Positions 19,001 through 57,500 of a stretch of DNA of 64,000 nt are shown in pieces. This DNA comes from Mobula hypostoma. Lineage: Eukaryota. A program made the position numbers and the translations under genes. Under the pieces are notes generated by a model. It was not told the origin of the DNA and ran no database searches. It was given only the letters and a program-made list of their open reading frames with translations. Each line of letters opens with the position of its first letter. The stretch's first letter is position 1. The DNA lies in the NCBI RefSeq assembly GCF_963921235.1, contig NC_086097.1:115880001-115944000 (forward strand), given 5' to 3'.

Positions 19001-19570
19001 CACAACCTTTCTATTAGTGGATTTGCTTGAACTTTTAACATCATTTATTTTCACCCCAGCCACACTGTTAGCTCTGGCACTCTGGTTCCCATCCCCCTGC
19101 AAACCTAGTTTAAAACCTCCCCAATAGCACTAACAAACCTCCCTGAAAGGATATTGGTCCCCCTGTAGTTCAGGTGTAACTCGTCTCTCTTGTACAGGTC
19201 CCACCTGCCCCGGAAGAGGTCCCAATGATCTTGAAATCTGAAACCCTGCCCCCTACATCAGTTCCTCAGCCACTTGTTCATCCTCCAGAGCATCCTATTC
19301 CTACCCTCACTGGCACGTAGCACAGGTAGCAATCCTGAGATTACCACCCTTGAGGTCCTGCTTTTCAACTTCCTACCAAGCTCTCTATACTCACTCTCCA
19401 GGACCTCCTCACTCTTCCTTGCTATGTCATTGGTACCAATGTGCACCACGACATCTGGCTGATCACCCTCCCACTTCAGAATGTCATGCAATCGATCAGA
19501 GACATCCTTGACCTTGGCACCCGGGAGGCAACAAACCATCCTGGATTCTCCGTCACGACCACAGAACCTC
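16094..19570 (-). mobile_element. CR1 LINE: 3' part of esterase ORF1 plus full-span but frameshifted ORF2
   Basis: ORF1 LPGAKV..HIGTNDI; ORF2 pieces 18419-19102 (EN: NARS, ETW, GGGVALLV), 17187-18401, 16528-17178 (QGSVLGP, FADD); (TTCTATGG)n tail. Confidence 0.95.
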
Positions 19571-22184: not shown

Positions 22185-22480
22185 TAACATCTCTCACTTT
22201 TCCTACCTGTGTCATTGTTGCCAATATATACCAAGACACCTGCTGCTCACCCTCCCCCTTAAGAATGGCGTGGACCTGAACTGAGACATCCCTGACCCTG
22301 GCACCTGGGAGGAAACATACCATCTGGGTGTCTCTCTTGCGCCCCTAGAATCTCATCTCTATTCCTCTGACAATGGAATCCGCAGTCACCTCTGTAAACC
22401 TCTTCACCTCTCTTCTCTTCTGAGCCCAGAGACCCACCCAGTCACTGCCCCCCAAAAGAGAATCCAATGTGGTATACTTT
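22185..22480 (-). mobile_element. CR1 ORF1 esterase remnant
   Basis: DSIVRG..MVCFLPGARVRDVS..ILKGEGEQ. Confidence 0.75.
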
Positions 22481-23099
22481 AAATTGATCTTGATCTTGAG
22501 CCTAAAGCCGGTTAAATCCTTGCAGGTTGTATTTAAGCTGATGTTTGTAGTTTCAAGTGATGCAGCAACAAGGTACATTGAGTGAGTCCCCTTTGTAATT
22601 TTAATTATGACCTTTCAATTAAAGATGATCAATTTCAGCTGAGTGAGATCGAGCTCCATGAGCCATTTAAAAGAGAGGCACAGAAGCAACACAATGGTGC
22701 AGAACAATGGGTGCTAGAATGTAGTTGTCTCGGGGGGGGGGGAATTCTGCGGCATCCTCTTAGCATTGGTCTATGCTCAATACATAGAGAAGTCCAGCAT
22801 CCAGCACAGTATGGATTTCGGCCCATGATATTGTGCTGACATTTTAATCTATTTTACAATCAATTTCACCCTTTCCTTCTATAGAGCCCATATACCTCAT
22901 TTTTTTGTTCATCTATCAGCCTATCTAAGAGCCTCTAAAATGTCCCTATTATGTCAAACTGTAACACTATCCTGGCAACCCCAAGATTAATCTAACCCTT
23001 CTCTCTCATGTAGCCTCCAGTTTTCCTAATGCAGTAACTGCCTTTACATCGAGGCATCACTAAACCTGCCAGCCTTACTCTTCAACCTATCAGGAATAT

Positions 23100-23577: not shown

Positions 23578-23997
23578 TTCCTATCCCCTTCTGTTTCTAA
23601 ATTCTACCCATGTGGCTCTACCGGACGATCCCCCGAGACTATCCTCTCGAAGGACAACTGTTCTGTCCTCTGTCATCAAGAAGGCAACTGTCCCTCCTCT
23701 CTTACCTGCACTTTCGTCAAACCTGTAGCATTTGTATCCTGGAGCACTGAGCCACCAGTCCTCCCTCACCAATGTATCTGTTATCCCCGTCCCCAATCCA
23801 TGCCCCTGCTTCTCCATCTTGCTGTCATGCCTATTGCATAGAAATACATGCAATTTAAAGCCAATGGTCTTTCCTCTCCCTTTACTGAGCTCTCATCTAT
23901 CCTGACAACTAAATTTACTCTCATTATCCCCTGATTTTGTATCATCTCAGTGCCCTATATCCCCCACCGCTCTAGTTTAAAACCCCTTGAACAGTAT

Positions 23998-25086
23998 ATT
24001 AGATTAGATTAGATTCAACTTTATTGTCATTGTGCCGAGTAGATACAAAGCCAATGAAATGCATTTAGCATCTGACCAGAAATGCAAAGAATAGTGTTAT
24101 TTACAAAATAACTGAGAATTAAAAAAAGTGCTACAGCACACAAATATAAAAGTACTGAGACAGTACAATACCGACGCAATACTGCTTAGTGCTGTGATGA
24201 GAGGTTCAGCAGTGTCACAGCCTCAGGGAAGAAGCTCTTCCTGTGCCTGCTGGTGCGGGAGCGGAGGCTCCTGTAGCGCCTACCGGATGGGAGGAGAGTA
24301 AAAAGTCCATGGTTAGGGTGAGATGCATCCCTGATAATGTTCCTCGCCCTGCCCAGGCAGCGTTTATGGTAGATGTTCTCAATGGTGGGCAATTGGGTGT
24401 CGATAATCCACTGGGCAGTTTTCACCACACGCACGCTGGAGTGCTTTGCAGTCCAATATGGGACAATTGCCATACCACACTGAGATGCAGTTGGTGAGTA
24501 TGCTCTCAATGGTACAGCGGTAAAAGACCATCAGTATTCTGGGACAGAGGTGAGCTTTCTTCATGCTCCACAGGAAATAAAGGAGCTGTTGCACCTTTTT
24601 GATCAGGATGGAGGAGGTCAGGGACCAGGTGAGATCCTCGGAAATATGGACACCAAGGAACTTGAAGTTTGATACACGCTCCACTACAGTTCCATTGATG
24701 TAGATGAGGATGTGAGTATGACTCCTAGCATGCCTGAAGTCCACAATGATCTCCTTGGTCTTCTGGGTGTTAAGGGCCAGGTTGTTGTCAGCATACCACG
24801 TGGCCAGGTGCTGGACCTCATCCCTGTAGGCCGTCTCGTCATCCCCTCTGATCAGACCAACCACCGTGGTGTCGTCTGCGAACTTGATTATGGAGTTAGA
24901 ACCATGTACAGGAACACAGTCATAGGTGAAAAGGGAGTACAGAAGAGGGCTCAGCACACAGCCTTGAGGTACGCCGGTGTTCAGGGTGAGAGTGGAGGAG
25001 GAGAGATTGTCTAACTTAACTGATTGGGGTCTGTTAGGCAGAAAGTCCAAGGTCCAATTGCAGAGGGATACGCTGATAACATGCAG
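23998..25086 (-). mobile_element. Rex1/Babar LINE, 5'-truncated
   Basis: [31 protein letters not shown]-terminal LLPSGRRYRS; (TCTAA)n tail. Confidence 0.9.
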
Positions 25087-25402
25087 GCATACAAATCTTC
25101 TCGCCAGGACAATGATTACCCTCCAGTTCAAGTGCAGCCCGTCTCTTGTACAGGTTATCTCAACTCTAGAAGAGATCCCAATGATCCAAGAACTTGAATC
25201 CCTGTGTTCCCGCACCCCCCCCCGCCACACTGCACCATCTCTTCAGCCACACTTTCATCTAAGCTACCTTTCCATTTATACCATCACTAGCATGTGGCAC
25301 TGGGAAGAATCCAGGGTTTACTACCTTTGAGGTCCTGCTGTATAGATTCTCTTCAACTCACTATATTCAACACAAAAGACTTCATCCCTCTTTCTACCTA
25401 TG

Positions 25403-25613
25403 TGTTAGGTACATGGCTTATGACCAAATAAAACACTGGCTGGAGTTGCTTTGAATTTTCGTGCAAGGATGTTTATTAAGTGCGTCAAAAATCAAACTGA
25501 TAAAAATGAGTGAAAGTAGCGAAAAGAAAACTGCCAATATTTACAAAAAGATATCTACCAGAAAACACATTTATAGCCACATGCTACATCTAGTGGGAAC
25601 TCCCGCAGTGCGT

Positions 25614-29481: not shown

Positions 29482-32400
29482 TTCCTTCTGTTGCCTCCCT
29501 GGTGCCAGGGTCCGTGATATCTCTGATGGAGTTCTCAGTATTCTCAAGAGGGAGGGTGAGCAGCCAGATGTCGTGGTCCATGTAGGAAGAAGGAAGAAGT
29601 CCTGCAAAGGGAATTTAGAGAGTTAGGTGCAAAGTTGAAGGACAGGTTCTCCAGGGTTGCAGTCTCAGGATTGCTACCGGTGCCACGTGCTAGTGAGGCT
29701 ACAAATATGAAGACAATGCAGCTAAATACATGGCTAAGGAGTTGGTGCAGGACTGAGGGCTTCATGTTTATGGACAATTGGGCCTTGTTCCAGGGAAGGT
29801 GGGACCTGTTCCGACGGGATGGGTTGCACCTGAACTGGAGGGGGACTAATATCCTTGCTGGAAGGTTTGCTAATGCTGCTCTGGGGATTTAAACTAGATT
29901 TGCAGGGGGAGGGGAACCAGAGTGTTAGAGCAGATAGTGAGGTGGAGGAGGATAAATATCATGTGAGAAGTGCAAGTATAGTGCATGGAGTAAAGCCAGA
30001 TGTAAAATATGAAAAGGCTTTGATGAAAGAGAAACAGAAAAAAGGGTGTAAAGTTAGTAAGGTAGAAGGGCTAATGTGCGTGTACTTCAATACAAGAAGC
30101 ATCAGGAACAATGGTGATGAACTGAGAGCTTGGATACATTCATGGAATTATGATGTAGTGGCCATTACAGAGACTTGGCTGGCACCAGGGCAGGAATGGA
30201 TTCTCAATATTCCTCGACTTCAGTGCTTTAAAAGGGATGGTGGGGCGGGGAGGGGAGGAGGGGTGGCATTACTGGTCAGGGATACTATTACAGCTACAGA
30301 AAGGGTGAGTAGTGTAGTAGGATCCTATTTTGAGTCAATATGGGTGGAAGTCAGGAACAGGAAGGAAGCAGTTACTCTATTGGGGGTATTCTAAAGGCCT
30401 CCTGGTAGCAGCAGATATACAGAGGAGCAGATTGGGAGGCAGATTTTGGAAAGGTGCAAAAATAACATGGTTGTTATCATGGGTGACTTTAACTTCCCTA
30501 ATATTGATTGGCACCTGATTCATTCCATTGGTTTAAAGGGGGAAGAGTTTGTTTAGTGTATCCAGGACAAATTCCTTTCACAGTATGTTGACAGGCCAAC
30601 TAGGGGAAATGCCATACGGGATCTAGTATTAGATAACCAACTGGGTCAGGTCACAGATCTCTCAGTGGGTGAGCATCTGGGGGACAGTGACCATCGCTCC
30701 CTGGCCTTTAGCATTATCATGAGAAAGGATAGAATCAGAGAGGACAGGAAAGTTTTTAATTGGGGAAGGGCAAATTATGAGGCTATAAGGCTAGAACTTG
30801 CGGGTGTGAACTGGGATGAAGTTTTTGCAGGGAAATGTAGTTTGGACATGTGGTCGACGTTTAGGGATCTCTTGCAGGATGTTACGGATAAATTTGTCCC
30901 GGTGAGGAAGATAAAGAATGGCAGGGTGAAGGAACCATGGGTGACAAGTGAGGTGGAGAATCTAGTCAGGTGGAAGAAGGCAGCATACATGAGGTTTAGG
31001 AAGCAAGGATCAGATGGGTCTATTGAGGAATATAGGGTAGCAAGAAAGGAGCTTAAGAAGGGGCTGAGAAGAGCAAGATGGGAGCATGAGAAGGCCTTGG
31101 CGAGTAGGGTAAAGGAAAACACCAAGGCATTCTTCAATTATGTGAAGAACAAAATGATGACAGGAGTGAAGACAGGACCAATTAGAGATAAAGATGGGAA
31201 GATGTGCCTCGAGGTGGTGGAAGTAAGCAAGGTCTTCAATGAGTACTTCTCTTCGGTATTCACCAATGAGAGGGAACTTGATGATGGTGAGGACAATATG
31301 TGTGAGGTTGATGTTCTGGAGCATGCTGATATTAAGGGAGAGGAGGTGTTGGAGCTGTTAAAATACATTAGGATGGATAAATCCCCGGGGCCTGACGGAA
31401 TATTCCCCAGGCTGCTCCATGAGGCGAGGGAAGAGATTGCTGAGCCTCTGGCTATGATCTTTATGTCCTCATTTTCCACAGGAATGGTACTGGAAGATTG
31501 AAGGGAGGCAAATGTTGTCCCCTTGTTCAAGAAAGGTAGAAGGGATAGTCTGGGTAATTATAGACCGGTGAGTCTTACTTCTGTGGTGGGAAAGCTGTTA
31601 GAAAAGATTCTTAGAGATAGGATCTATGGGCATTTAGAGAATCATGGTCTGATCAGAGACAGTCAGCATGGCTTTGTGAAGGGCAGATCGTGTCTAACAA
31701 GCCTGATAGAGTTCCTGAGGAGGTTACCAGGCACATAGATGAGGGTAGTGCAGTGGACGTGATCTATATGGATTTTAGTAAGGCATTTGATAAGGTTCCA
31801 CACGGTAGGCTTATTCAGAAAGTCAGAAGGCATGGGATCCAGGGAAGTTTGGCCAGGTGGATTCAGAATTGGCTTGCCTACAGAAGGCAGAGGGTGGCGG
31901 TGGAGGGAGTACATTCGGATTGGAGGGTTGTGACTAGTGGTGTCCCACAAGCATCAGTTCTGGGACCTTTATTTTTTCTGGTTTTTATTAATGACCTGGA
32001 TGTAGGGGTAGAAGGGTGGGTTGGCAGGTTTGCAGACGTCACAAAAGTTGGTGGTGTTGTGGATAGTGCAGAGGATTGTCAAAGATTGCAGAGAGACATT
32101 TCTAGGTTGCAGAAGTGGGCTGAGAAGTGGCAGATGGAGTTCAACCCGGAGAAGTGTAAGGTGATACACTTTGGAAGGACAAACTCTAAGGCAGAGGACA
32201 AAGTGAATGGCAGGATACTTGGTAGTGTGGAGGAGCAGAGGGATCTGGGGGTCCATGTCCACAGATCCCTGAAAGTTGCCTCACAGGTAGATCGGGTAGT
32301 TAAGACAGCTTATGGAGTGTTAGTTTTCATAAGTCAAGGGATAGAGTTTAAGAGTCACGATGTAATGATGCAGCTCTATAAAACTCCGGTTAGGCCACAC

Positions 32401-40626: not shown

Positions 40627-41454
40627 CTCAGGGACCGTGTTACGGAACTGGAGCTGCAGCTCGATGACCTTCGTCTGGTCAGGGAGAGCGAGGAGGTGAT
40701 AGAGAGGAGTGGAAGGCAGGTGGTCACGCCGGGGCCACGGTAGGCAGACAAGTGGGTCACGGTTAGGAGGGGGAAGGGGAAAAGGCAGGTGATGGGGAGT
40801 ACCCCGGCGGCTGTGCCCCTTAACAACAGGTACTCCTGTTTGAGTACTGTTGGAGGGGACAGCTTACCCGGGGGAAGCGACAGTGGCCCTGCCTCCGGCA
40901 CAGAGTCTGGCCCTGTAGCTCAGAAGGGTAGGGCAAGGAAGAGGAGGGCAGTTGTGATAGGGGACTCGATAGTAAGGGGGTCAGATAGGCGATTCTGTGG
41001 ACGCAGTCCAGAGACTCGGATGGTAGTTTGCCTCCCTGGTGCCAGGGTCCGGGATATTTCTGATCGTGTCCAAGATATCCTGAAGTGGGAGGGTGAAGAG
41101 CCAGAGGTCCTGGTACATATAGGTACCAATGACATAGGTAGGAAAAGGGATGAGGTCCTGAAAGAAGAATATAGGGAGCTAGGAAGGGAGTTGAGAAAAA
41201 GGACCGCAAAGGTAGTAATCTCGGGATTACTGCCTGTGCCACGCGACAGTGAGAGTAGGAATGCGATGAGGTGGAGGATAAATGCGTGGCTGAGGGATTG
41301 GAGCAGGGGGCAGGGATTCAAGTTTTTGGATCATTGGGACCTCTTTTGGCGCAGGTGTGACCTGTACAAAAAGGACGGGTTACACTTAAATCCTAGGGGG
41401 ACCAATATCCTGGCAGGGAGATTAGCGGGGGCTACTGAGGTGACTTTAAACTAG
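40627..41454 (+). pseudogene. CR1 ORF1p (coiled coil plus SGNH/GDSL esterase), N-terminally truncated, one internal stop
   Basis: LRDRVTELELQLDDLRL..GPR* (TAG 40741-40743)..IGDSIVRG..HIGTND..DGLHLN..TLN*. Confidence 0.9.
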
Positions 41455-44400
41455 AATGGTTGGGGGGTGGGAATCAAATTAAAGAGGCTAGGTGTGAGGA
41501 GGTTAGTTCACAACAGAGGGATGGGAACCAGTGCAGAGAGACAGAGGGGTGTAAAGTGAGCGTAGAAGCAAAAAGTACAAAGGGGAAAAGTAAAAGTGGC
41601 AGGCTGACAAATCCAGGGCAAGCATTAAAAAGGACTAAGAGAGTTGTAAAAGAGCGCCTGAAGGCTTTATGTGTCAATGCAAGGAGCATTCGTAATAAGG
41701 TGGATGAATTGAAAGTGCAGATTGTTATTAATGATTATGATATAGTTGGGATCACAGAGACATGGCTCCAGGGTGACCAGGGATGGGAGCTCAACGTTCA
41801 GGGATATTCAATATTCAGGAGGGATAGACATGAAGGAAGGGGAGGTGGGGTGGCGTTGCTGGTTAAAAAAGAGATTAACGCAATAGAAAGGAAGGACATA
41901 AGCCGGGAAGATGTGGAATCGATATGGGTAGAGCTGCGTAACACTAAGGGGCAGAAGACGCTGGTGGGAGTTGTGTACAGGCCACCTAACAGTAGTAGTG
42001 AGGTCGGAGATGGTATTAAACAGGAAATTAGAAATGTGTGCAATAAAGGAACAGCAGTTATAATGGGTGACTTCAATCTACATGTAGACTGGGTGAACCA
42101 AATTGGTAAAGGTGCTGAGGAAGAGGATTTCTTGGAATGTATGCGGGATGGTTTTTTGAACCAACATGTCGAGGAACCAACTAGAGAGCAGGCTATTCTG
42201 GACTGGGTTTTGAGCAATGAGGAAGGGTTAATTAGCGATCTTGTCGTGAGAGGCCCCTTGGGTAAGAGTGACCATAATATGGTGGAATTCTTCATTAATA
42301 TGGAGAGTGACACAGTTAATTCAGAAACAAAGGTTCTGAACTTAAAGAGGGGTAACTTTGAAGGTATGAGTCGTGAATTAGCTAAGATAGACTGGCATAT
42401 GACACTTAAAGGATTGACGGTGGATATGCAATGGCAAGCATTTAAAGGTTGCATGGATGAACTACAACAATTGTTCATCCCAGTGTGGCAAAAGAATAAA
42501 TCAAGGAAGGTAGTGCACCCGTGGCTGACAAGAGAAATTAGGGATTGTATCAATTCCAAAGAAGTAGCATACAAATTAGCCAGAGAAAGTGGCTCACCTG
42601 AGGACTGGGAGAAATTCAGAGTTCAGCAGAGGAGGACAAAGGGCTTAATTAGGAAGGGGAAAAAAGATTATGAGAGAAAACTGGCAGAGAACATAAAAAC
42701 GGACTGTAAAAGCTTTTATAGATATGTAAAAAGGAAAAGACTGATAAAGACAAATGTAGGTCCCCTGCAAACTGAAACAGGTGAATTGATTATGGGGAGC
42801 AAGGACATGGCAGACCAATTGAATAATTACTTTGGTTCTGTCTTCACTAAGGAGGACATAAATAATCTTCCAGAAATAGTAAGGGACAGAGGGTCCAGTG
42901 AGATGGAGGAACTGAGCGAAATACATGTTAGTAGGGAAGTGGTGTTAGGTAAATTGAAGGGATTGAAGGCAGATAAATCCCCAGGGCCAGATGGTCTGCA
43001 TCCCAGAGTGCTTAAGGAAGTGGCCCAAGAAATAGTGGATGCATTAGTGATAATTGTTCAAAACTCGTTAGATTCTGGACTAGTTCCTGAGGATTGGAGG
43101 GTGGCTAATGTAACCCCACTTTTTAAAAAAGGAGGGAGAGAGAAACCGGGGAATTATAGGCCGGTTAGCCTAACGTCGGTGGTGGGGAAACTGCTGGAGT
43201 CAGTTATCAAGGATGTGATAACAGCACATTTGGAAAGCGGTGAAATGATCGGACAAAGTCAGCATGGATTTGTGAAAGGAAAATCATGTCTGACGAATCT
43301 CATAGAATTTTTTGAGGATGTAACTAGTAGAGTGGATAGGGGAGAACCAGTGGATGTGGTATATTTGGATTTTCAAAAGGCTTTTGACAAGGTCCCACAC
43401 AGGAGATTAGTGTGCAAGCTTAAAGCACACGGTATTGGGGGTAAGGTATTGGTGTGGGTGGAGAATTGGTTAGCAGACAGGAAGCAAAGAGTGGGAATAA
43501 ACGGGACCTTTTCAGAATGGCAGGCGGTGACTAGTGGGGTACCGCAAGGCTCAGTGCTGGGACCCCAGTTGTTTACAATATATATTAATGACTTGGATGA
43601 GGGAATTAAATGCAGCATCTCCAAGTTTGCGGATGACACGAAGCTGGGTGGCAGTGTTAGCAGTGAGGAGGATGCTAAGAGGATGCAGGGTGACTTGGAT
43701 AGGTTGGGTGAGTGGGCAAACTCATGGCAGATGCAATTTAATGTGGATAAATGTGAAGTTATCCACTTTGGTGGCAAAAATAGGAAAACAGATTATTATC
43801 TGAATGGTGGCCGATTAGGAAAAGGGGAGGTGCAACGAGACCTGGGTGTCATTATACACCAGTCATTGAAAGTGGGCATGCAGGTACAGCAGGCGGTGAA
43901 AAAGGCGAACGGTATGCTGGCATTTATAGCGAGAGGATTCGAGTACAGGAGCAGGGAGGTACTACTGCAGTTGTACAAGGCCTTGGTGAGACCACACCTG
44001 GAGTATTGTGTGCAGTTTTGGTCCCCTAATCTGAGGAAAGACATCTTTGCCATAGAGGGAGTACAAAGAAGGTTCACCAGATTGATTCCTGGGATGGCAG
44101 GTCTTTCATATGAAGAAAGACTGGATGAACTGGGCTTGTACTCGTTGGAATTTAGAAGATTGAGGGGGGATCTGATTGAAACGTATAAGATCCTAAAGGG
44201 ATTGGACAGGCTAGATGCGGGAAGATTGTTCCCGATGTTGGGGAGGTCCAGAATGAGGGGTCACAGTTTGAGGATAGAGGAGAAGCCTTTTAGGACCGAG
44301 ATTAGGAAAAACTTCTTCACACGGAGAGTGGTGAATCTGTGGAATTCTCTGCCACAGCAAACTGTTGAGGCCAGTTCATTAGCTATGTTTAAAAGGAAGT

Positions 44401-44465
44401 TAGATATGGCCCTTGTGGCTACAGGGGTCAGGGGGTATGGAGGGAAGGCTGGGGCGGGGTTCTGA
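41445..44465 (+). CDS. CR1 ORF2p: APE endonuclease plus reverse transcriptase (no AUG start; frame open from 41439)
   Basis: NARSIRNK, ITETWL, GGGVALLV, MGDFN, SDH; KSPGPDG, NYRPVSLTS, QHGF, DFQKAFDKVPH, QGSVLGP, FADD; no stops. Confidence 0.93.
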   Translation, partial: FKLEWLGGGNQIKEARCEEVSSQQRDGNQCRETEGCKVSVEAKSTKGKSKSGRLTNPGQALKRTKRVVKERLKALCVNARSIRNKVDELKVQIVINDYDIVGITETWLQGDQGWELNVQGYSIFRRDRHEGRGGGVALLVKKEINAIERKDISREDVESIWVELRNTKGQKTLVGVVYRPPNSSSEVGDGIKQEIRNVCNKGTAVIMGDFNLHVDWVNQIGKGAEEEDFLECMRDGFLNQHVEEPTREQAILDWVLSNEEGLISDLVVRGPLGKSDHNMVEFFINMESDTVNSETKVLNLKRGNFEGMSRELAKIDWHMTLKGLTVDMQWQAFKGCMDELQQLFIPVWQKNKSRKVVHPWLTREIRDCINSKEVAYKLARESGSPEDWEKFRVQQRRTKGLIRKGKKDYERKLAENIKTDCKSFYRYVKRKRLIKTNVGPLQTETGELIMGSKDMADQLNNYFGSVFTKEDINNLPEIVRDRGSSEMEELSEIHVSREVVLGKLKGLKADKSPGPDGLHPRVLKEVAQEIVDALVIIVQNSLDSGLVPEDWRVANVTPLFKKGGREKPGNYRPVSLTSVVGKLLESVIKDVITAHLESGEMIGQSQHGFVKGKSCLTNLIEFFEDVTSRVDRGEPVDVVYLDFQKAFDKVPHRRLVCKLKAHGIGGKVLVWVENWLADRKQRVGINGTFSEWQAVTSGVPQGSVLGPQLFTIYINDLDEGIKCSISKFADDTKLGGSVSSEEDAKRMQGDLDRLGEWANSWQMQFNVDKCEVIHFGGKNRKTDYYLNGGRLGKGEVQRDLGVIIHQSLKVGMQVQQAVKKANGMLAFIARGFEYRSREVLLQLYKALVRPHLEYCVQFWSPNLRKDIFAIEGVQRRFTRLIPGMAGLSYEERLDELGLYSLEFRRLRGDLIETYKILKGLDRLDAGRLFPMLGRSRMRGHSLRIEEKPFRTEIRKNFFTRRVVNLWNSLPQQTVEASSLAMFKRKLDMALVATGVRGYGGKAGAGF

Positions 44466-45784
44466 GTTGGATGATCAGCCATGATCATAATAAGTGGCGG
44501 TGCAGGCTCGAAGGGCCGAATGGCCTACTCCTGCACCTATTTTCTATGTTTCTATGTTTCTTTTATTTTTAAATTTTACTATTGACTGAATCTAGTTATT
44601 AGAGAGTAATAAAGCAAAATTGGGTATAAGCCTAATCTAAGTGACCTACACTAGTTATTTTATATGAAGAAACTATGTTGTATTGGTCATGGAATCATCT
44701 TTGGGACATTTTCTCCATGGGAATTCCATAAGAAGCATGTTCTGCACTAACAATCAAATAAATCAGAGTCTGAAAGAAGCAAGCATTAATTTTACGTCGG
44801 AACAATTGTGGGGATTATTGATCCTACGGAGGACATGCTCCATGGATTAACCAAGGTCAAAGAAGCCATAGCTATTTCGGAATCCAATTTTTTCGAGGTA
44901 GTGAGGAAAAATAAATGAAAAGGCCTGTTTCTCTAGTTGGTGATTGAAGAACAACTTTTACGGTTCATGAGATCTCCAGAATACAATTCTTTAAAATTTA
45001 CTGGTGATTAGAATGTACTAGTAATCTATTAAGGACTGTTCTTCGATAAGTTAATGAAATTCAATATTATCTGATTGGTTTCAATATTTCTAGGAAATAA
45101 TTTATGTTTGGGTCAGGAGTCAGATGGCTCAGTTATTACTTGGTTGGAGAGCTGTACAGAAGTACAATGTGCAGCAGAGTTTCTCGGGAGAAGCAATTGC
45201 CAGTCACTTAGTTTGAGAAGTGCCCAGAGTTAAAGGTAACATATTACGTTTCCCCCTCCTTGATGCAGGGCACTTTAGAGTCATCAGAATACTCACTGCT
45301 CAGTGTTATCAGAGTCTTGTAAAGGACAGTGAAGCTGTGCTGGAATGCTGCTCCTTTGTGTGATATTTGAGTGTGTTTGAACAGATTGTTTTCTCATTTT
45401 TCAGCCATTGGGTACTTAGTGAAAAAACAAATGAATATGCGATAATCAAAATCCAGAAATATTAATGTATTTTGATCAATATCTATTTATACTTTTCATG
45501 ACTGATTTATCAACATTGCACCAGAGCGGAAAACGCAAGATAGTATATGAATTCAAAGATGAATATGAGTGATAAAGGAAGTGCACTGAATGATAACATG
45601 TTTTCATTGTGTGAAACAAGCTGTATGTAATAGATATGTAGAGCTCGATTACACTGAGATATTACTGAAAATCATTCAGATGAGGATATGTTACAGCAAC
45701 ATAACGTGCTACGTCCTTATTGGCTTCATGTCAATCTACTGTTAAGGGTCATTTCAGGTTCCTCCCTTGGAATCTCATTTTAAA

Positions 45785-54589: not shown

Positions 54590-57500
54590 AACGTAGGTTT
54601 GCTAGAGCTGTTAGGGAGGGTTTAAACTAGTTTGGCAGGGGGGTGGGAATCAGAATGTGAGTCCAGAGATTAGGATAGAAGGACGAGGGCATGATGCTAT
54701 GTGTTCTGAGTTGGTGAGGAAGGACAGACAAGGGACAAAGCATAAATGTAGCCAATTAGAAGGGTTGAAACGTGTCTACTTCAACGCTAGGAGTATAAGG
54801 AATAAAGGGGATGAACTTAGAGCATGGATCAGTGGGTGGAACTATGATGTTGTGGCCATTACTGAAACTTGGCTGGAAGAAGGGCAGGATTGGCTGATGC
54901 AGGTACCGGGGTTTTGGTGTTTTAAAAGGAATAGGATGAGAGGTAGAAAAGGTGTGTGTGGGGGGGTGTGGGGTAGCATTACTGGTCAAGGATAGTACCA
55001 TGGCTATAGAAAGGGAGGATGCTACGGAGGGAGTGTCCACTGAGTCGGTGTGAGTGGAAGTCAGAAATAGGAAGGGATCAATAACTGTGCTGGGAGTAGT
55101 CTATAGGCCCCCAAATAGCTCTTGGGACACCGAGGAGCAGATAAGCAGGCAGATTTTAGAATGGTGCAGGAAATACAGGGTTGTAGTTATGGGTGATTTC
55201 AACTTCCCTCATATTGACTGGCTCCTCCTGACTGCAATGAGGATAGATGGGGCTGAATTTGTCAGGTGTGTTCAAGAAGGATTCCAGACACGGTATGTGG
55301 ACCAGTCGACGAGAGGAGAGGCCATACTGGATCTAGTTCTGGGTAATGAACCTGGTCAGGTGGCAGACCTCTTGGTGGGGGACCATTTTAGTGAGAGTGA
55401 CCACAACCCCCTTAGCTTCAGCATAACTATGGAAAAAGATAAAAACAGACAAAATAGGAAAGTGCTTAACTGGGGAAGTGCTAACTATGAAGGGATGAGG
55501 CAGGAACTAGCGAGAGTACATTGGAAACAGATGTTCAAGGGTGAAAGCACAGAAGTAATGTGGAGGAAGTTTAGGGACCACTTGTGCTGGGTTCAGGATA
55601 GGTTTGTCCCACTGAGACAAGGAAAAAATGTTAAGAAAAGGGAACTGTAGCTGATGAAACATGTGAGGCAGCTCATCAAGAGGAAGAAGGAAGCCTATGT
55701 TAGATATAAGAAGCAAGAAACAGGAGGGGCTCATGAGAAATATAGGGTAGCCAGGAAGGAGATTAAGAAAGGACTTAGGAGAGCTTAAAGGGAGCATGAG
55801 AAGGCCTTGGCATGTAGAATTAAGGAGCACACCAAGGCATTCTATGCGTTTGTGAAGAACAGAAGGATGACAAGAATGAAGGTGGGGCCTGGAGGTGGAG
55901 GAGGTTAGGGAGGTCCTAAGTGAATACTTTGCTTCAGTATTCACAAGTGAAAAGGACCTTTATCAGGGTGAGGTTGAAATAGAACAGGCCTGTGTGCTGG
56001 ACAATGTGGAGATTAAGGAAGAAGAAGTGTTGGATCTTCTTAAAAACATCAAAATTGGTAAGTCCCCAGGGCCGGATACACAAGGTTGCTGTGGGAAGTG
56101 GGAAGCTGGAGCAGGAGCTATGACCTTTGAATCCTCTTTGGCTGCAGGGCAGGTGCAAGAGGATTGAATAATAGCAAATGTAGTTCCCTTGCTTCAAAAA
56201 AGTAATAGGGAGAATCCTGGGAACTATAGACCGGTGAGTCTTACGTCGGTGGTCTGCAAGCTATTGAAAAGAATTCTTAGGAATAGGATCTATGAGCACT
56301 TGGAGAAGTACAGTCTACTCAAGGATAGTTGACATGGCTTTGTGAAGGGAAGATCGTGCCTCATGAGCCTAATTGAGTTTTTTGAGGAGGTAACAAAAGA
56401 AATTGATGAGGGTAGTGTGGTAGATATGGTCTACATGGATTTTAGTAAGGCATTTGACAAGGTCCCACACGAGAGAGACATCCAGAAAGTCATGAGGCAT
56501 GGGATCAGTGGAACCTTGGCTGTTCAGATAAAAGAATTGGCTTAAAGGAAGAAAGCAGAGGGTAGTAGTGGAAAGAAAGTATTCTGCCTGGAGGTCAGTG
56601 ACTAGTGGAGTGCCGCAAGGATCTGTCCTGGGACCCCTGCTCTTTGTGATTTTTATAAGTGACCTGGATGAAGAGGCGGAAGGATTGGTGAGTAAGTTTG
56701 CGGATGACGCAAATTTTGGAGGAGTTGTGGATTGAGCTGTAGGTTGTCGAAGGTTACAAGAGGATATAGACAGGATGCAAAGTTAGACAGAAAAGTGGCA
56801 GATGGAGTTCAATCTGGATAAGTGTGAGGTGATGCATTTTGGAAGGACAAACCAGAAGGCTAAGTACAGGGTTAATGGTTGGTTACTTAAGAGTGTGAAT
56901 GAACAGAGGGACCTTGGAGTTCAAATCCATACATCCCTCAAGGTTGCTGCACAGGTTGATAGGATATTTATGAAGCCCTATGGGGTGCTAGGCTTCATTA
57001 ATAGGGGGATTGAGTTCAAGAGTAGAGAGGTCATGTTGCAACTCTACAAATCTCTGGTGAGACCACACTTGGAGTATTGTGTTCAGTTCTGGTCATCTCA
57101 TTATAAGAAGGATGTGGAAGCTATGGAGGGGGTGCAGTGGAGATTTACCAGGATGTTGCCTGGATTGGAAAACAAATTTTATGAGGCAAGGTTAGCGGAG
57201 CTGGGACTTTTCTCTTTGGAGCGTAAAAGGATGAGAGGGGACTTGATAGAGGTCTACAAGATTATGAGAGGCACAGATAGGGTGGATAGCCAGTACCTGT
57301 TTCCCAGGGCACGAATAGCAAACACCAGAGGGCATATGTACAAAGTTAATGGAGGGAAGTTTAGGGGAGACATCAAGGGTGAGTTTTTTACACAGAGGAT
57401 TGTGAGTGCCTGGAATTACTTGCCAGGAATGGTGGTGGAGGCTAAAACATTAGGGGTATTTAAGAGCCTCTTGGACAGGCACATGGATGAAAGAAAAATA

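Follow-up and report, generated by a model that had tools for sequence, protein, structure and literature searches.

A conserved slippery heptamer at the ORF1-ORF2 junction of CR1 LINEs in Mobula hypostoma, a candidate site of −1 ribosomal frameshifting

The young 41k element and its ORF1-ORF2 junction

The window, that is, the whole 64,000-nt stretch of Mobula hypostoma DNA analysed here (NC_086097.1, positions 115,880,001 to 115,944,000), contains on its forward strand a very young, 5'-truncated CR1-type LINE (40631..44561; hereafter the 41k copy), whose identity to the full-length relative L001 begins at about 40631. Relatives of this copy reach 99-100% identity (40 scored of 1560 candidates) and full-length ones are present elsewhere. 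The ORF1 remnant (40744..41454, forward strand; 236 codons stop-to-stop) is of the GDSL/SGNH esterase type, with a Lipase_GDSL_2 domain in Pfam (PF13472, E 1.4e-15) and a match to the “ORF1-encoded protein” of PDB entry 4c1b (E 1.7e-27). The full ORF1 of relatives is 311 aa long counted from Met; the 41k ORF1 lacks its start and about 46 codons, because homology starts only at about 40631 and a nonsense codon, TAG, occupies 40741-40743, where L001 has a Glu codon. The initial annotation took the 41k copy to be intact, which is true of ORF2 and not of ORF1. The ORF2 frame (41439..44465, forward strand) extends over 1008 codons stop-to-stop and encodes an endonuclease (Exo_endo_phos, PF03372, residues 91-277) and a reverse transcriptase (RVT_1, PF00078, residues 564-781).

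CR1 LINEs end in a short hairpin and an octamer microsatellite in place of poly(A). The 3' end of the 41k copy (44514-44561) consists of a hairpin-like ggccgaatggcc followed by (TTCTATGT)x2.5, with no poly(A). The elements of the window, with their esterase ORF1 and endonuclease/reverse-transcriptase ORF2, are assigned to the CR1 clade, a label given by a visual resemblance between the 3' part of their ORF1 and LINE/CR1 rows of PMC13343379 Supplementary Table 2 (e.g. HypSab_CR1-13), a set represented by the first 400 letters of each consensus.

ORF1 of the 41k copy terminates in ACT TTA AAC TAG, in which the slippery heptamer U_UUA_AAC (41445..41451, forward strand) stands in ORF1 phase and the ORF1 stop UAG (41452..41454) follows it immediately, the sequence of 41445-41454 being TTTAAACTAG. 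In a scan covering 236 + 1006 codons of ORF1 and ORF2, this was the sole in-phase X_XXY_YYZ of the copy. ORF2 lies in the −1 frame, which is closed upstream by a TGA (41436..41438, forward strand) two codons ahead of the heptamer, so that the two frames overlap by just 16 nt; the two open codons before TTT are found in 30/30 family members. The −1 linker from CUA to the endonuclease motif (41451..41666, forward strand) is purine-rich, without an ATG, and has no stop in the ORF2 frame, whereas the remaining frames contain 7 and 8. The LCVNARS endonuclease motif is codon 74 counted from TTT and the first in-frame ATG past the heptamer is codon 206, at MGDFN. The terminus, the −1 frame open only from 41439 and the late first ATG, about 200 codons in, were all correctly read in the initial annotation. 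Another ATG, at 41456-41458, was considered as a restart codon and rejected, being in the third frame and followed by a stop after 8 codons.

Conservation of the heptamer and of the start-less ORF2 frame

TTTAAACTAG occurs five times in the window, versus 0.20 occurrences expected, and at least five occurrences were seen in 0/100 shuffles. The four further sites, which had been listed at 19k, 23k, 29k and 54k, are present as reported: 19108..19114 on the reverse strand (GTT TTA AAC TAG in this copy, family-typical GCT TTA AAC TAG), 23975..23981 on the reverse strand, 29888..29894 on the forward strand and 54621..54627 on the forward strand (the last two family-typically GGT TTA AAC TAG). The 23k copy is decayed and its −1 frame ends after 8 codons. 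Since the 23k and 54k copies are both 5'-truncated just upstream of the motif, their ORF1 phase is unreadable in the window. In the 19k, 29k and 54k copies TTT AAA CTA continues in frame to the endonuclease motif with 0 stops, in line with the frame originally assigned to TTT. In an alignment of three diverged copies (3598 columns, 41.7% of them invariant) TTTAAACTAG ties for the second-longest invariant run, at 10 nt.

Relatives retrieved from the Mobula hypostoma genome place U_UUA_AAC in ORF1 phase in five families. In the 41k family the ORF1 terminus is xxT TTA AAC plus a stop in 30/30 loci; a mini-intron or editing event joining the frames, which was also considered, has no support, the two-frame layout being common to 30/30 young copies. 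In the 19k family 25/30 loci read GCT TTA AAC TAG. The 29k copy has lost one base upstream of the heptamer; this loss is private to the copy, as had been suspected when its ORF1 phase shift was ascribed to an indel. TTAAACTAG (the heptamer less its first T, plus the stop) is near the expected place in 18/20 fetched relatives, and in 16/18 of those, translation with T_TTA_AAC in phase yields the ORF1 C-terminus ...GTNILAGRFASAA.GGLN*. In the 54k family TTTAAAC is kept in 10/10 relatives, with TAG after it in 8/10, and the in-phase frame terminates in ...GRFA.AVG.GLN in 10/10. The per-position majority of an old family, 22k, is also TTTAAAC, with the heptamer intact in 3/7 copies. Low mutability does not account for retention of the heptamer, because the dead copies of this old family lose the motif like their flanks. 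No variants were seen at 41445-41465 in the contigs of four runs aligned to 41330-41600, where just near-identical contigs reach the site and about one variant is expected, so that we give this absence no weight.

Codon choice at the site is equally constrained. ORF1 of the 41k copy uses TTA for 6 of its 20 Leu codons, AAC for 3 of 8 Asn codons and T at the third position of 52 of 236 codons, and all three are fixed at the heptamer. The constancy of heptamer, phase and codons (Leu TTA, Asn AAC, preceding third base T) was proposed for checking in the initial annotation, and it holds in the five families as well as in consensi of 12 vertebrate species taken from the 400-letter set.

ORF2 is always in the −1 frame and opens 2 (41k) or 5 (19k) codons ahead of TTT, giving frame overlaps of 16-25 nt. 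Between the heptamer and the endonuclease motif, a distance of 47-74 codons in four families, the ORF2 frame has 0 stops versus 4-9 in each other frame. At the junction itself no window family offers an AUG to the ORF2 frame, and in two families ORF2 is without an AUG for 104-206 codons. The first Met is codon 206 in 26/30 members of the 41k family, an in-frame linker ATG is found in 1/28 evaluable copies of the 19k family, and 16/18 relatives of the 29k family have no in-frame ATG within 63 codons. The 54k family differs, with an in-frame ATG at linker codon 26 that is family-typical (9/10 relatives). The initial annotation noted a linker ATG in the more decayed 29k and 54k copies; those of the 29k copy are its private mutations. 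A conserved in-frame AUG upstream of the endonuclease is absent in 3/4 families and present in the 54k family.

The heptamer extends well beyond this genome. In the first 400 letters per consensus of PMC13343379 Supplementary Table 2, 20 consensi labelled CR1 or Crack, drawn from 12 species, have it in an ORF1-end context, the hosts being chimaera, sharks, rays, bowfin, halosaur, coelacanth, bullfrog, bearded dragon, alligator and crocodile. It is invariant across these consensi while its neighbours vary: the codon after it is TAG in 11, TAA in 6, TGA in 1 and no stop in 2 (HypSab_CR1-13 and ScyCan_CR1-13, which keep the heptamer without an adjacent stop), and the codon before it is ATT, GCT, CTT, GAT, GGT, AGT or TGT. 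Most of these rows were retrieved by the heptamer itself, and the unbiased samples are those anchored on the downstream G-run box (see below) and on the endonuclease start. With the former anchor the heptamer is present in 9/9 CR1 rows, one of them cut at the row start; with the latter it is present in 3/5, the exceptions being EubMac_CR1-1, with a decayed gcttTaac, and CalMil_CR1-4, with no heptamer within 130 nt. By hand reading, the heptamer is in phase in six consensi (HypSab_CR1-6b, SquAca_CR1-17a, AllMis_CR1-6a, PogVit_CR1-2, ScyCan_CR1-1a and CroPor_CR1-7b), and in five others the phase is off by one base shortly before it, always beside low-confidence letters. Three shark consensi, ScyCan_CR1-1a, SquAca_CR1-17a and SquAca_CR1-6c (catshark and dogfish), read TTTAAACTAATG, a UAAUG stop-start overlap. 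GGTTTAAACTAR is present also in the 5'UTR of two dogfish consensi of the same set.

The sequence downstream of the heptamer

No unusually stable RNA fold was found in the 130 nt past the heptamer (MFE z-scores +0.32, −1.14, +0.23, −2.42 and −1.05), and RNAalifold on the five copies returned 0 shared pairs. Neither a significant nor a shared stem-loop or pseudoknot was found 5-9 nt 3' of the heptamer, in a pseudoknot search that was non-exhaustive. What is conserved there is a G-run box, GGGGGGTGGG (41462..41471, forward strand), a candidate stimulatory element that begins 10 nt past the heptamer in the 41k copy, keeps its position in 5/5 aligned window copies at a spacing of 9-10 nt, and also in the 9/9 CR1 consensi retrieved by the box itself, and lies downstream, not upstream, of the ORF1 stop. 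Both of its Gly codons are always GGG, although GGG makes up 29 of the 92 Gly codons of ORF2. The 41k copy has a second G-box, GAGGGATGGGAACCAG (41516..41531, forward strand), within a stretch of about 60 nt that has been inserted or duplicated in this family, recognised from the sequence and from contigs; the loose ends of other-family contigs connect TTTAAACTAATGTGG to the point of this second box.

Three further candidates for this region were rejected. A G-quadruplex as a general stimulator was dismissed, the two-tetrad form over the G-box being predicted in just 2/5 copies. A small hairpin closing the box (GGUU..AACC) matches the 19k and 41k copies and is mismatched, by hand reading, in 29k, 54k and alligator. 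A TURBS-like UGGGA within the box is missing, again by hand reading, from the 29k family and from the crocodilian and Pogona consensi of the 400-letter set.

In arteriviruses (PRRSV), frameshifting is stimulated by protein: a viral protein and PCBP bind a linear, C-rich motif located 3' of the shift site at a distance of about 10 nt. By analogy, an element that acts through its sequence instead of an RNA structure, at a similar spacing, may offer a lead to a role of the CR1 G-run box, although the motif is C-rich there and a G-run in CR1.

A proposed route to ORF2 and its alternatives

We propose that in CR1 LINEs gag-pol-style −1 frameshifting at U_UUA_AAC joins ORF1 to ORF2, a reading to which we give a probability of roughly 0.6 and which draws on what is described above: the heptamer and the phase in which it stands, the relation of the two frames, a linker that is open and start-less, and the depth to which all this is conserved. 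ORF2 would have no start of its own and would be reached at the two sense codons with which ORF1 closes. The majority of ribosomes would decode ..xxU UUA AAC and terminate at the adjoining stop, producing ORF1p, which measures 311 aa in the young family. A smaller share of them would slip one base backwards on U_UUA_AAC, either by tandem slippage of tRNA-Leu and tRNA-Asn or by P-site slippage of tRNA-Asn with the stop codon waiting in the A site. After the slip CUA would be read next, then a flexible linker of 47-74 codons, then the endonuclease and reverse transcriptase, the predicted product being a fusion of ORF1p to ORF2p, about 1315 aa long, with the junction ..L-N-L... We infer the slippage, whatever its efficiency, and the fusion protein, together with any stimulatory role of the G-run box or the adjacent stop, from sequence comparison. 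The frameshift interpretation of the initial annotation is partly supported. The conservation of heptamer, phase and codons and the absence of a family-level in-frame ATG in 3/4 families favour it; the lack of a conserved 3' stimulatory structure, the AUGs of the 54k family and of some shark consensi, the five out-of-phase consensi, the two endonuclease-anchored rows without an intact heptamer and the existence of ORF1-less CR1 lineages count against it.

The same heptamer in the same phase serves coronavirus ORF1a/1b and deltaretrovirus pro-pol, where the downstream polymerase ORF is likewise in the −1 frame without its own start; BLV reads U UUA AAC UAG, with the stop adjacent to the heptamer. 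In both viral systems a minority of the upstream protein is fused to the polymerase, following retroviral Gag-Pol logic, and the same may be expected in CR1 by analogy. CR1 differs in having no pseudoknot or stem-loop 5-9 nt downstream and instead the G-run box at 9-10 nt, and in the element that carries the site: a non-LTR retrotransposon whose ORF1 encodes an esterase and which has no protease by which a fusion could be cleaved. A literature search covering work other than the early CR1 reports of Kapitonov and Jurka (2003), Kajikawa (1997) and Haas (1997) found no earlier description of CR1 ORF1-ORF2 frameshifting. The only non-LTR retrotransposon case mentioned in the accessible part of a 2016 recoding review (PMC5009743) is the gag frameshift of HeT-A, a Drosophila telomeric element; that shift is within gag, does not join ORF1 to the reverse transcriptase, and belongs to a different clade and a different site.

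How ORF2 is translated from a bicistronic LINE RNA is a long-standing question, answered to our knowledge for L1 and SART1 alone, in both cases by reinitiation. Human LINE-1 has a bicistronic RNA with a very low ORF2p output, and translation of its ORF2 depends on ribosomes coming from ORF1 by an unconventional termination-reinitiation. In L1 a 63-nt spacer separates the ORFs, ORF2 begins at an AUG of its own and the frames do not overlap; CR1, in contrast, has frames overlapping by 16-25 nt and, in the two families mentioned, a long AUG-less start of ORF2. According to the accessible part of PMC3894237, which calls ORF2 initiation in LINEs an open question, the silkworm R1-clade LINE SART1 has, like CR1, an ORF2 in the −1 frame, with an ORF1 stop/ORF2 frame overlap of one base; it uses UAAUG and a downstream structure, and a slippery heptamer is not reported there.

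Coupled termination-reinitiation, a route described for these other LINEs, is the strongest alternative for CR1 too, though we consider it rather unlikely. Some post-termination ribosomes would restart a few bases up- or downstream in the −1 frame, at an AUG where present (UAAUG) and otherwise at a non-AUG codon; ORF2p would be a separate protein and the TTTAAAC-stop-G-box block would be the signal. The UAAUG of the three published shark consensi, which recalls SART1, the linker AUG of some lineages and the failure of MFE and RNAalifold to find a PRF-type structure all agree with it, and it too predicts what is seen of the ORF2 frame, which becomes open at the stop itself and from there on seems to be translated. 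The window families differ from SART1, however, in having no AUG at the junction, and AUG is absent at or near the stop in families of the Mobula hypostoma genome. Reinitiation also leaves an exact X_XXY_YYZ in ORF1 phase unexplained and gives no reason for the fixed third base of a variable preceding codon, for TTA among six Leu codons or for AAC over AAT, and the two published consensi with the heptamer and no adjacent stop speak against it.

Independent internal initiation of ORF2, by IRES-like entry or from a transcript that is internal or shorter, starting within the linker at an AUG or non-AUG codon and with the heptamer conserved for some other cause, seems improbable to us. It is compatible with the family-typical linker AUG of the 54k family and with two window copies and two published consensi whose starts lie at the heptamer or shortly ahead of it, as might result from a shorter RNA; CR1 lineages without ORF1 exist (PMC13343379, section 15, in the part available), which implies that ORF2 can be expressed without ORF1 in relatives. 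However, 3/4 families have no AUG ahead of the catalytic N-terminal endonuclease motifs, and the linker is open back to the heptamer and no further, an openness that initiation farther downstream does not need. Least probable of all is conservation for a non-translational reason (e.g. an RNA/DNA signal for packaging or reverse-transcript processing) with a coincidental slippery match: a possible hot spot of 5' ends adjoins the heptamer and GGTTTAAACTAR recurs in two dogfish 5'UTRs, but by our count only about 24 of the 16384 heptamers are canonical eukaryotic shift sites, the conserved one is among them, and it stands in the right phase exactly where a start-less −1 ORF opens.

If frameshifting at U_UUA_AAC is the route to ORF2, the slip rate would set the ORF1p:ORF2p stoichiometry, the physical link of ORF2p to ORF1p would account simply for cis-preference and RNP assembly, and the reverse transcriptase would be accompanied by the esterase. 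Annotation would also be mended, CR1 ORF2 “starts” being now set at arbitrary internal Mets or left undefined. A wider version, which we offer tentatively and at somewhat under even odds, is that all esterase-bearing CR1 LINEs of jawed vertebrates, which dominate among the retrotransposons of sharks, reptiles and birds, make their reverse transcriptase as an ORF1p-ORF2p fusion via a U_UUA_AAC −1 frameshift kept for >400 million years. The shift would be driven by the adjacent stop and, 10 nt downstream, by a linear G-run element that may bind protein or form a weak quadruplex, and not by an RNA pseudoknot. Were this so, non-LTR retrotransposons would gain their first example of a Gag-Pol-style frameshift and eukaryotes a new type of frameshift stimulator, the G-run box possibly representing a new class of stimulatory element.

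The ORF1/ORF2 junction in the CR1 elements of Mobula hypostoma

In the CR1 copy at 41 kb of the window (41k, forward strand), an upstream ORF (40744-41454, stop to stop) ending ACT TTA AAC TAG meets a downstream ORF of 1008 codons in the -1 frame (41439-44465) at the sequence TTTAAACTAG (41445-41454), which holds the slippery heptamer U_UUA_AAC. The upstream protein is a GDSL esterase by Pfam (PF13472, E 1.4e-15) and matches PDB chain 4c1b, "ORF1-encoded protein" (E 1.7e-27), Exo_endo_phos (residues 91-277) and RVT_1 (residues 564-781) domains are present in the downstream protein, and the 3' end reads ggccgaatggcc followed by (TTCTATGT)n, without poly(A); the element is therefore a CR1-type LINE. 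Similarity to full-length relatives starts near 40631, indicating a 5' truncation, and an in-frame TAG occupies 40741-40743, where the full-length relative L001 has Glu, so that the Met of ORF1 and some 46 of its codons are missing. The initial annotation took this copy to be intact; its ORF2 is, while the copy as sequenced is unable to make ORF1p. The 41k family is very young; 40 scored matches out of 1560 candidates are at 99-100% identity, and among 30 fetched loci an ORF1 frame of the full 341 codons (311 aa counted from its Met) is present in 12 and the ORF2 frame is open to the locus end in 21.

The window holds five occurrences of TTTAAACTAG, against an expectation of 0.20 (five were reached in 0 of 100 shuffles), and each of them lies at the junction of a CR1 ORF1 and ORF2, which bears out the claim of the initial annotation that the heptamer is conserved at this junction in five copies. 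The heptamer is the sole in-phase X_XXY_YYZ within ORF1 or ORF2 of the 41k copy. When three diverged copies are aligned (3598 columns, 41.7% of them invariant), the junction 10-mer ties for the second-longest invariant run, the longest being 11 nt, within the reverse transcriptase.

The last ORF1 codons are ACT TTA AAC TAG in 30/30 members of the 41k family and GCT TTA AAC TAG in 25/30 of the 19k family. The 29k family typically ends GGT TTA AAC TAG, with TTAAACTAG in 18/20 fetched relatives, 16 of these 18 reading ...GTNILAGRFASAA.GGLN* in phase; the phase anomaly of the window copy is thus private, in line with its earlier attribution to an indel of that copy. In the 54k family, GGT TTA AAC is followed by TAG in 8/10, and the ORF1 tail is in phase in 10/10. 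An older CR1 family (22k; window 22189-22494, reverse strand, and loci L091-L100), with approximately 82% identity among copies, is a useful neutral baseline: its per-position majority is TTTAAAC plus TAA, with the heptamer intact in just 3/7 and TAA in 4/7, which shows that dead copies lose the junction motif as freely as any other sequence.

In two of the five window copies a 5' truncation falls 10-35 nt ahead of the heptamer, at 23981-23995 (reverse strand) and 54590-54620 (forward strand), and the published consensi ScyCan_CR1-1b and ScyCan_CR1-14 start at or inside it (PMC13343379, Supplementary Table 2); these may reflect a preferred site of 5' ends or the existence of a shorter RNA. At 25066-25410 (reverse strand) the 3' part of ORF1 is joined directly to a reverse-transcriptase fragment; the loss of the junction marks this copy as chimeric or nested.

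The ORF2 frame and constraint on nucleotides

The -1 frame opens just two (41k) or five (19k) codons upstream of the TTT, and the TGA found at 41436-41438, which closes it two codons upstream of the heptamer in 41k, agrees with the earlier reading that ORF2 is open only from 41439. Between the heptamer and the first endonuclease motif ([LIV]x[FV]NARS, codon 47-74) none of four families has a stop in the ORF2 frame, against 4-9 in each of the two other frames, so that this linker is kept translatable as far up as the heptamer but not upstream of it. The first in-frame Met of the 41k family is codon 206 (26/30), inside the endonuclease, and an ATG precedes the endonuclease motif in just 1/28 evaluable copies of the 19k family; the initial annotation, which placed the first ATG about 200 codons in and saw no Met ahead of the motifs in the 19k copy, holds for most members of these two families. 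Its caveat that the decayed 29k and 54k copies have linker ATGs stands in part: the two in 29k are private, 16/18 relatives having Arg and Lys there, whereas that in 54k (codon 26) is typical of its family (9/10 relatives).

A tandem slip would yield a protein ..Leu-Asn-Leu(CUA).., so that the "FK" of the -1 frame would never be translated, and protein-level constraint on the heptamer bases comes solely from the Leu-Asn of ORF1. From codon use in ORF1 (TTA in 6/20 Leu, AAC in 3/8 Asn, T in 52/236 third positions), such constraint alone is expected to give xxT TTA AAC in about 2.5% per saturated lineage. Conservation of the heptamer and its codon choice had been put forward as a check, and TTA, AAC and the preceding T are indeed fixed across relatives that vary in stop and preceding codon. 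That these bases are fixed in lineages with different stop codons and different preceding amino acids indicates that selection acts on the RNA sequence, and the pattern apparently selected is a canonical shift site, in phase, exactly where a start-less -1 ORF opens.

Published CR1 consensus sequences

A 2026 survey of CR1-group elements provides approximately 1000 consensus sequences (PMC13343379, Supplementary Table 2), of which the first 400 letters each were compared; the rows examined comprised all 44 TTTAAACT places and one TTTAAACG row. The heptamer ends an esterase-ORF1-like stretch in 20 consensi, labelled CR1 or Crack, that represent 12 species (elephant shark, catshark, dogfish, sawfish, stingray, bowfin, halosaur, coelacanth, bullfrog, bearded dragon, alligator and crocodile). 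It is followed by TAG in 11, by TAA in six, by TGA in one and by a non-stop codon in two, the codon supplying the first T is ATT, GCT, CTT, GAT, GGT, AGT or TGT, and a G-run box follows in many of these rows. As the 20 rows were selected via the heptamer itself, two heptamer-independent samples were drawn: it is present in 9/9 CR1 rows anchored on the G-box (one cut at the row start) and in 3/5 anchored on the endonuclease start, the other two being a decayed gcttTaac and a row without the heptamer within 130 nt. When consensi were translated by hand, six had the heptamer in ORF1 phase, and in five it was shifted by one base, in every case next to low-confidence (lower-case) letters. The -1 frame of ScyCan_CR1-1a is open from the TTT for 37 codons into LNCIYFNARG.

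Between 20 and 61% of the words sampled from 41200-41700 of the window are present in contig sets of at least 12 organisms, which indicates that closely related CR1 families are common to several species; loose contig ends of other organisms read ..TTTAAA(C).. preceded by G, C or A. AldAff_Crack-2 has a TTTAAACTAG junction resembling an ORF1 end, ORF1 not being reliably detected in vertebrate Crack elements according to the same survey (PMC13343379). The 12-mer GGTTTAAACTAR lies in the 5'UTR of the dogfish consensi SquAca_CR1-3 and SquAca_CR1-18, upstream of the ORF1 ATG (PMC13343379).

Translation of ORF2

The observation is real and far broader than could be seen initially. By comparison of sequences, we propose with a probability of roughly 0.6 that -1 programmed frameshifting joins ORF1 and ORF2; this reading, already that of the initial annotation, has passed the comparative tests that were run, and lacks a recognisable stimulator. 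A full-text literature search, its scope leaving room for a comment on how the two frames relate in the first CR1 papers or Repbase notes, returned no description of ORF1-ORF2 frameshifting in CR1 or any LINE. "Frameshift" is absent from the retrieved portions of a review of protein biogenesis in non-LTR elements (PMC3894237), the 2026 survey (PMC13343379), a Jockey-superfamily ORF1 study (PMC4120745), the paper on the esterase structure (PMC3905857), a study of CR1 in amniotes (PMC4316615), a general review of non-LTR elements (PMC2881922) and a ZfL2 paper (PMC4176376), and HeT-A and TART are the sole non-LTR elements named in the passages of a 2016 recoding review on non-LTR, LINE or retrotransposon terms (PMC5009743).

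Termination-reinitiation at the ORF1 stop, which L1 also uses, seems rather unlikely here. It is the documented LINE solution, operating in SART1 through UAAUG and a downstream structure, ORF2 initiation being otherwise termed an open question (PMC3894237), and UAAUG lies at the junction in three shark consensi (PMC13343379). In contrast to SART1, the Mobula families have no junction AUG, two consensi retain the heptamer without an adjacent stop, and the heptamer pattern and its phase would be left unexplained. Independent internal initiation of ORF2 is possible in the 54k family, given its typical linker ATG, and must be used by ORF1-less CR1 lineages (PMC13343379, section 15), yet it gives no reason for an open linker that reaches exactly to the heptamer. 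Even jointly with a non-translational role of the motif, at which the copies and consensi starting there and the 12-mer of the two dogfish 5'UTRs weakly hint, it is improbable.

For the proposed frameshifting, a classical stimulator was sought in the 130 nt that follow the heptamer in each of the five window copies and was not found; folding of this stretch was no better than that of shuffles in 4/5 (z = +0.32, -1.14, +0.23, -2.42 and -1.05), and RNAalifold gave no pair common to the five. The conserved 3' element is the G-run box (GGGGG, one or two bases, GGG or GGGG), which begins 9-10 nt 3' of the heptamer in the window families, with the same spacing in alligator, crocodile, Pogona, sawfish, stingray, catshark and elephant-shark consensi (PMC13343379). 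In the -1 frame it encodes Gly-x-Gly with both codons always GGG, against GGG in 29/92 Gly codons across ORF2, which suggests a role at the level of RNA; over the box, a two-tetrad quadruplex is predicted in just 2/5 copies. A linker insertion or duplication of about 60 nt, specific to the 41k family (41455-41515 and 41516-41531), holds a second G-box, the one that directly follows the heptamer in contigs of other families, and this rearrangement retains a G-box 10 nt after the heptamer. The neighbouring 0-frame stop could in its own right promote slippage. As LINEs probably require only small amounts of ORF2p, a low, structure-independent slip rate may suffice.
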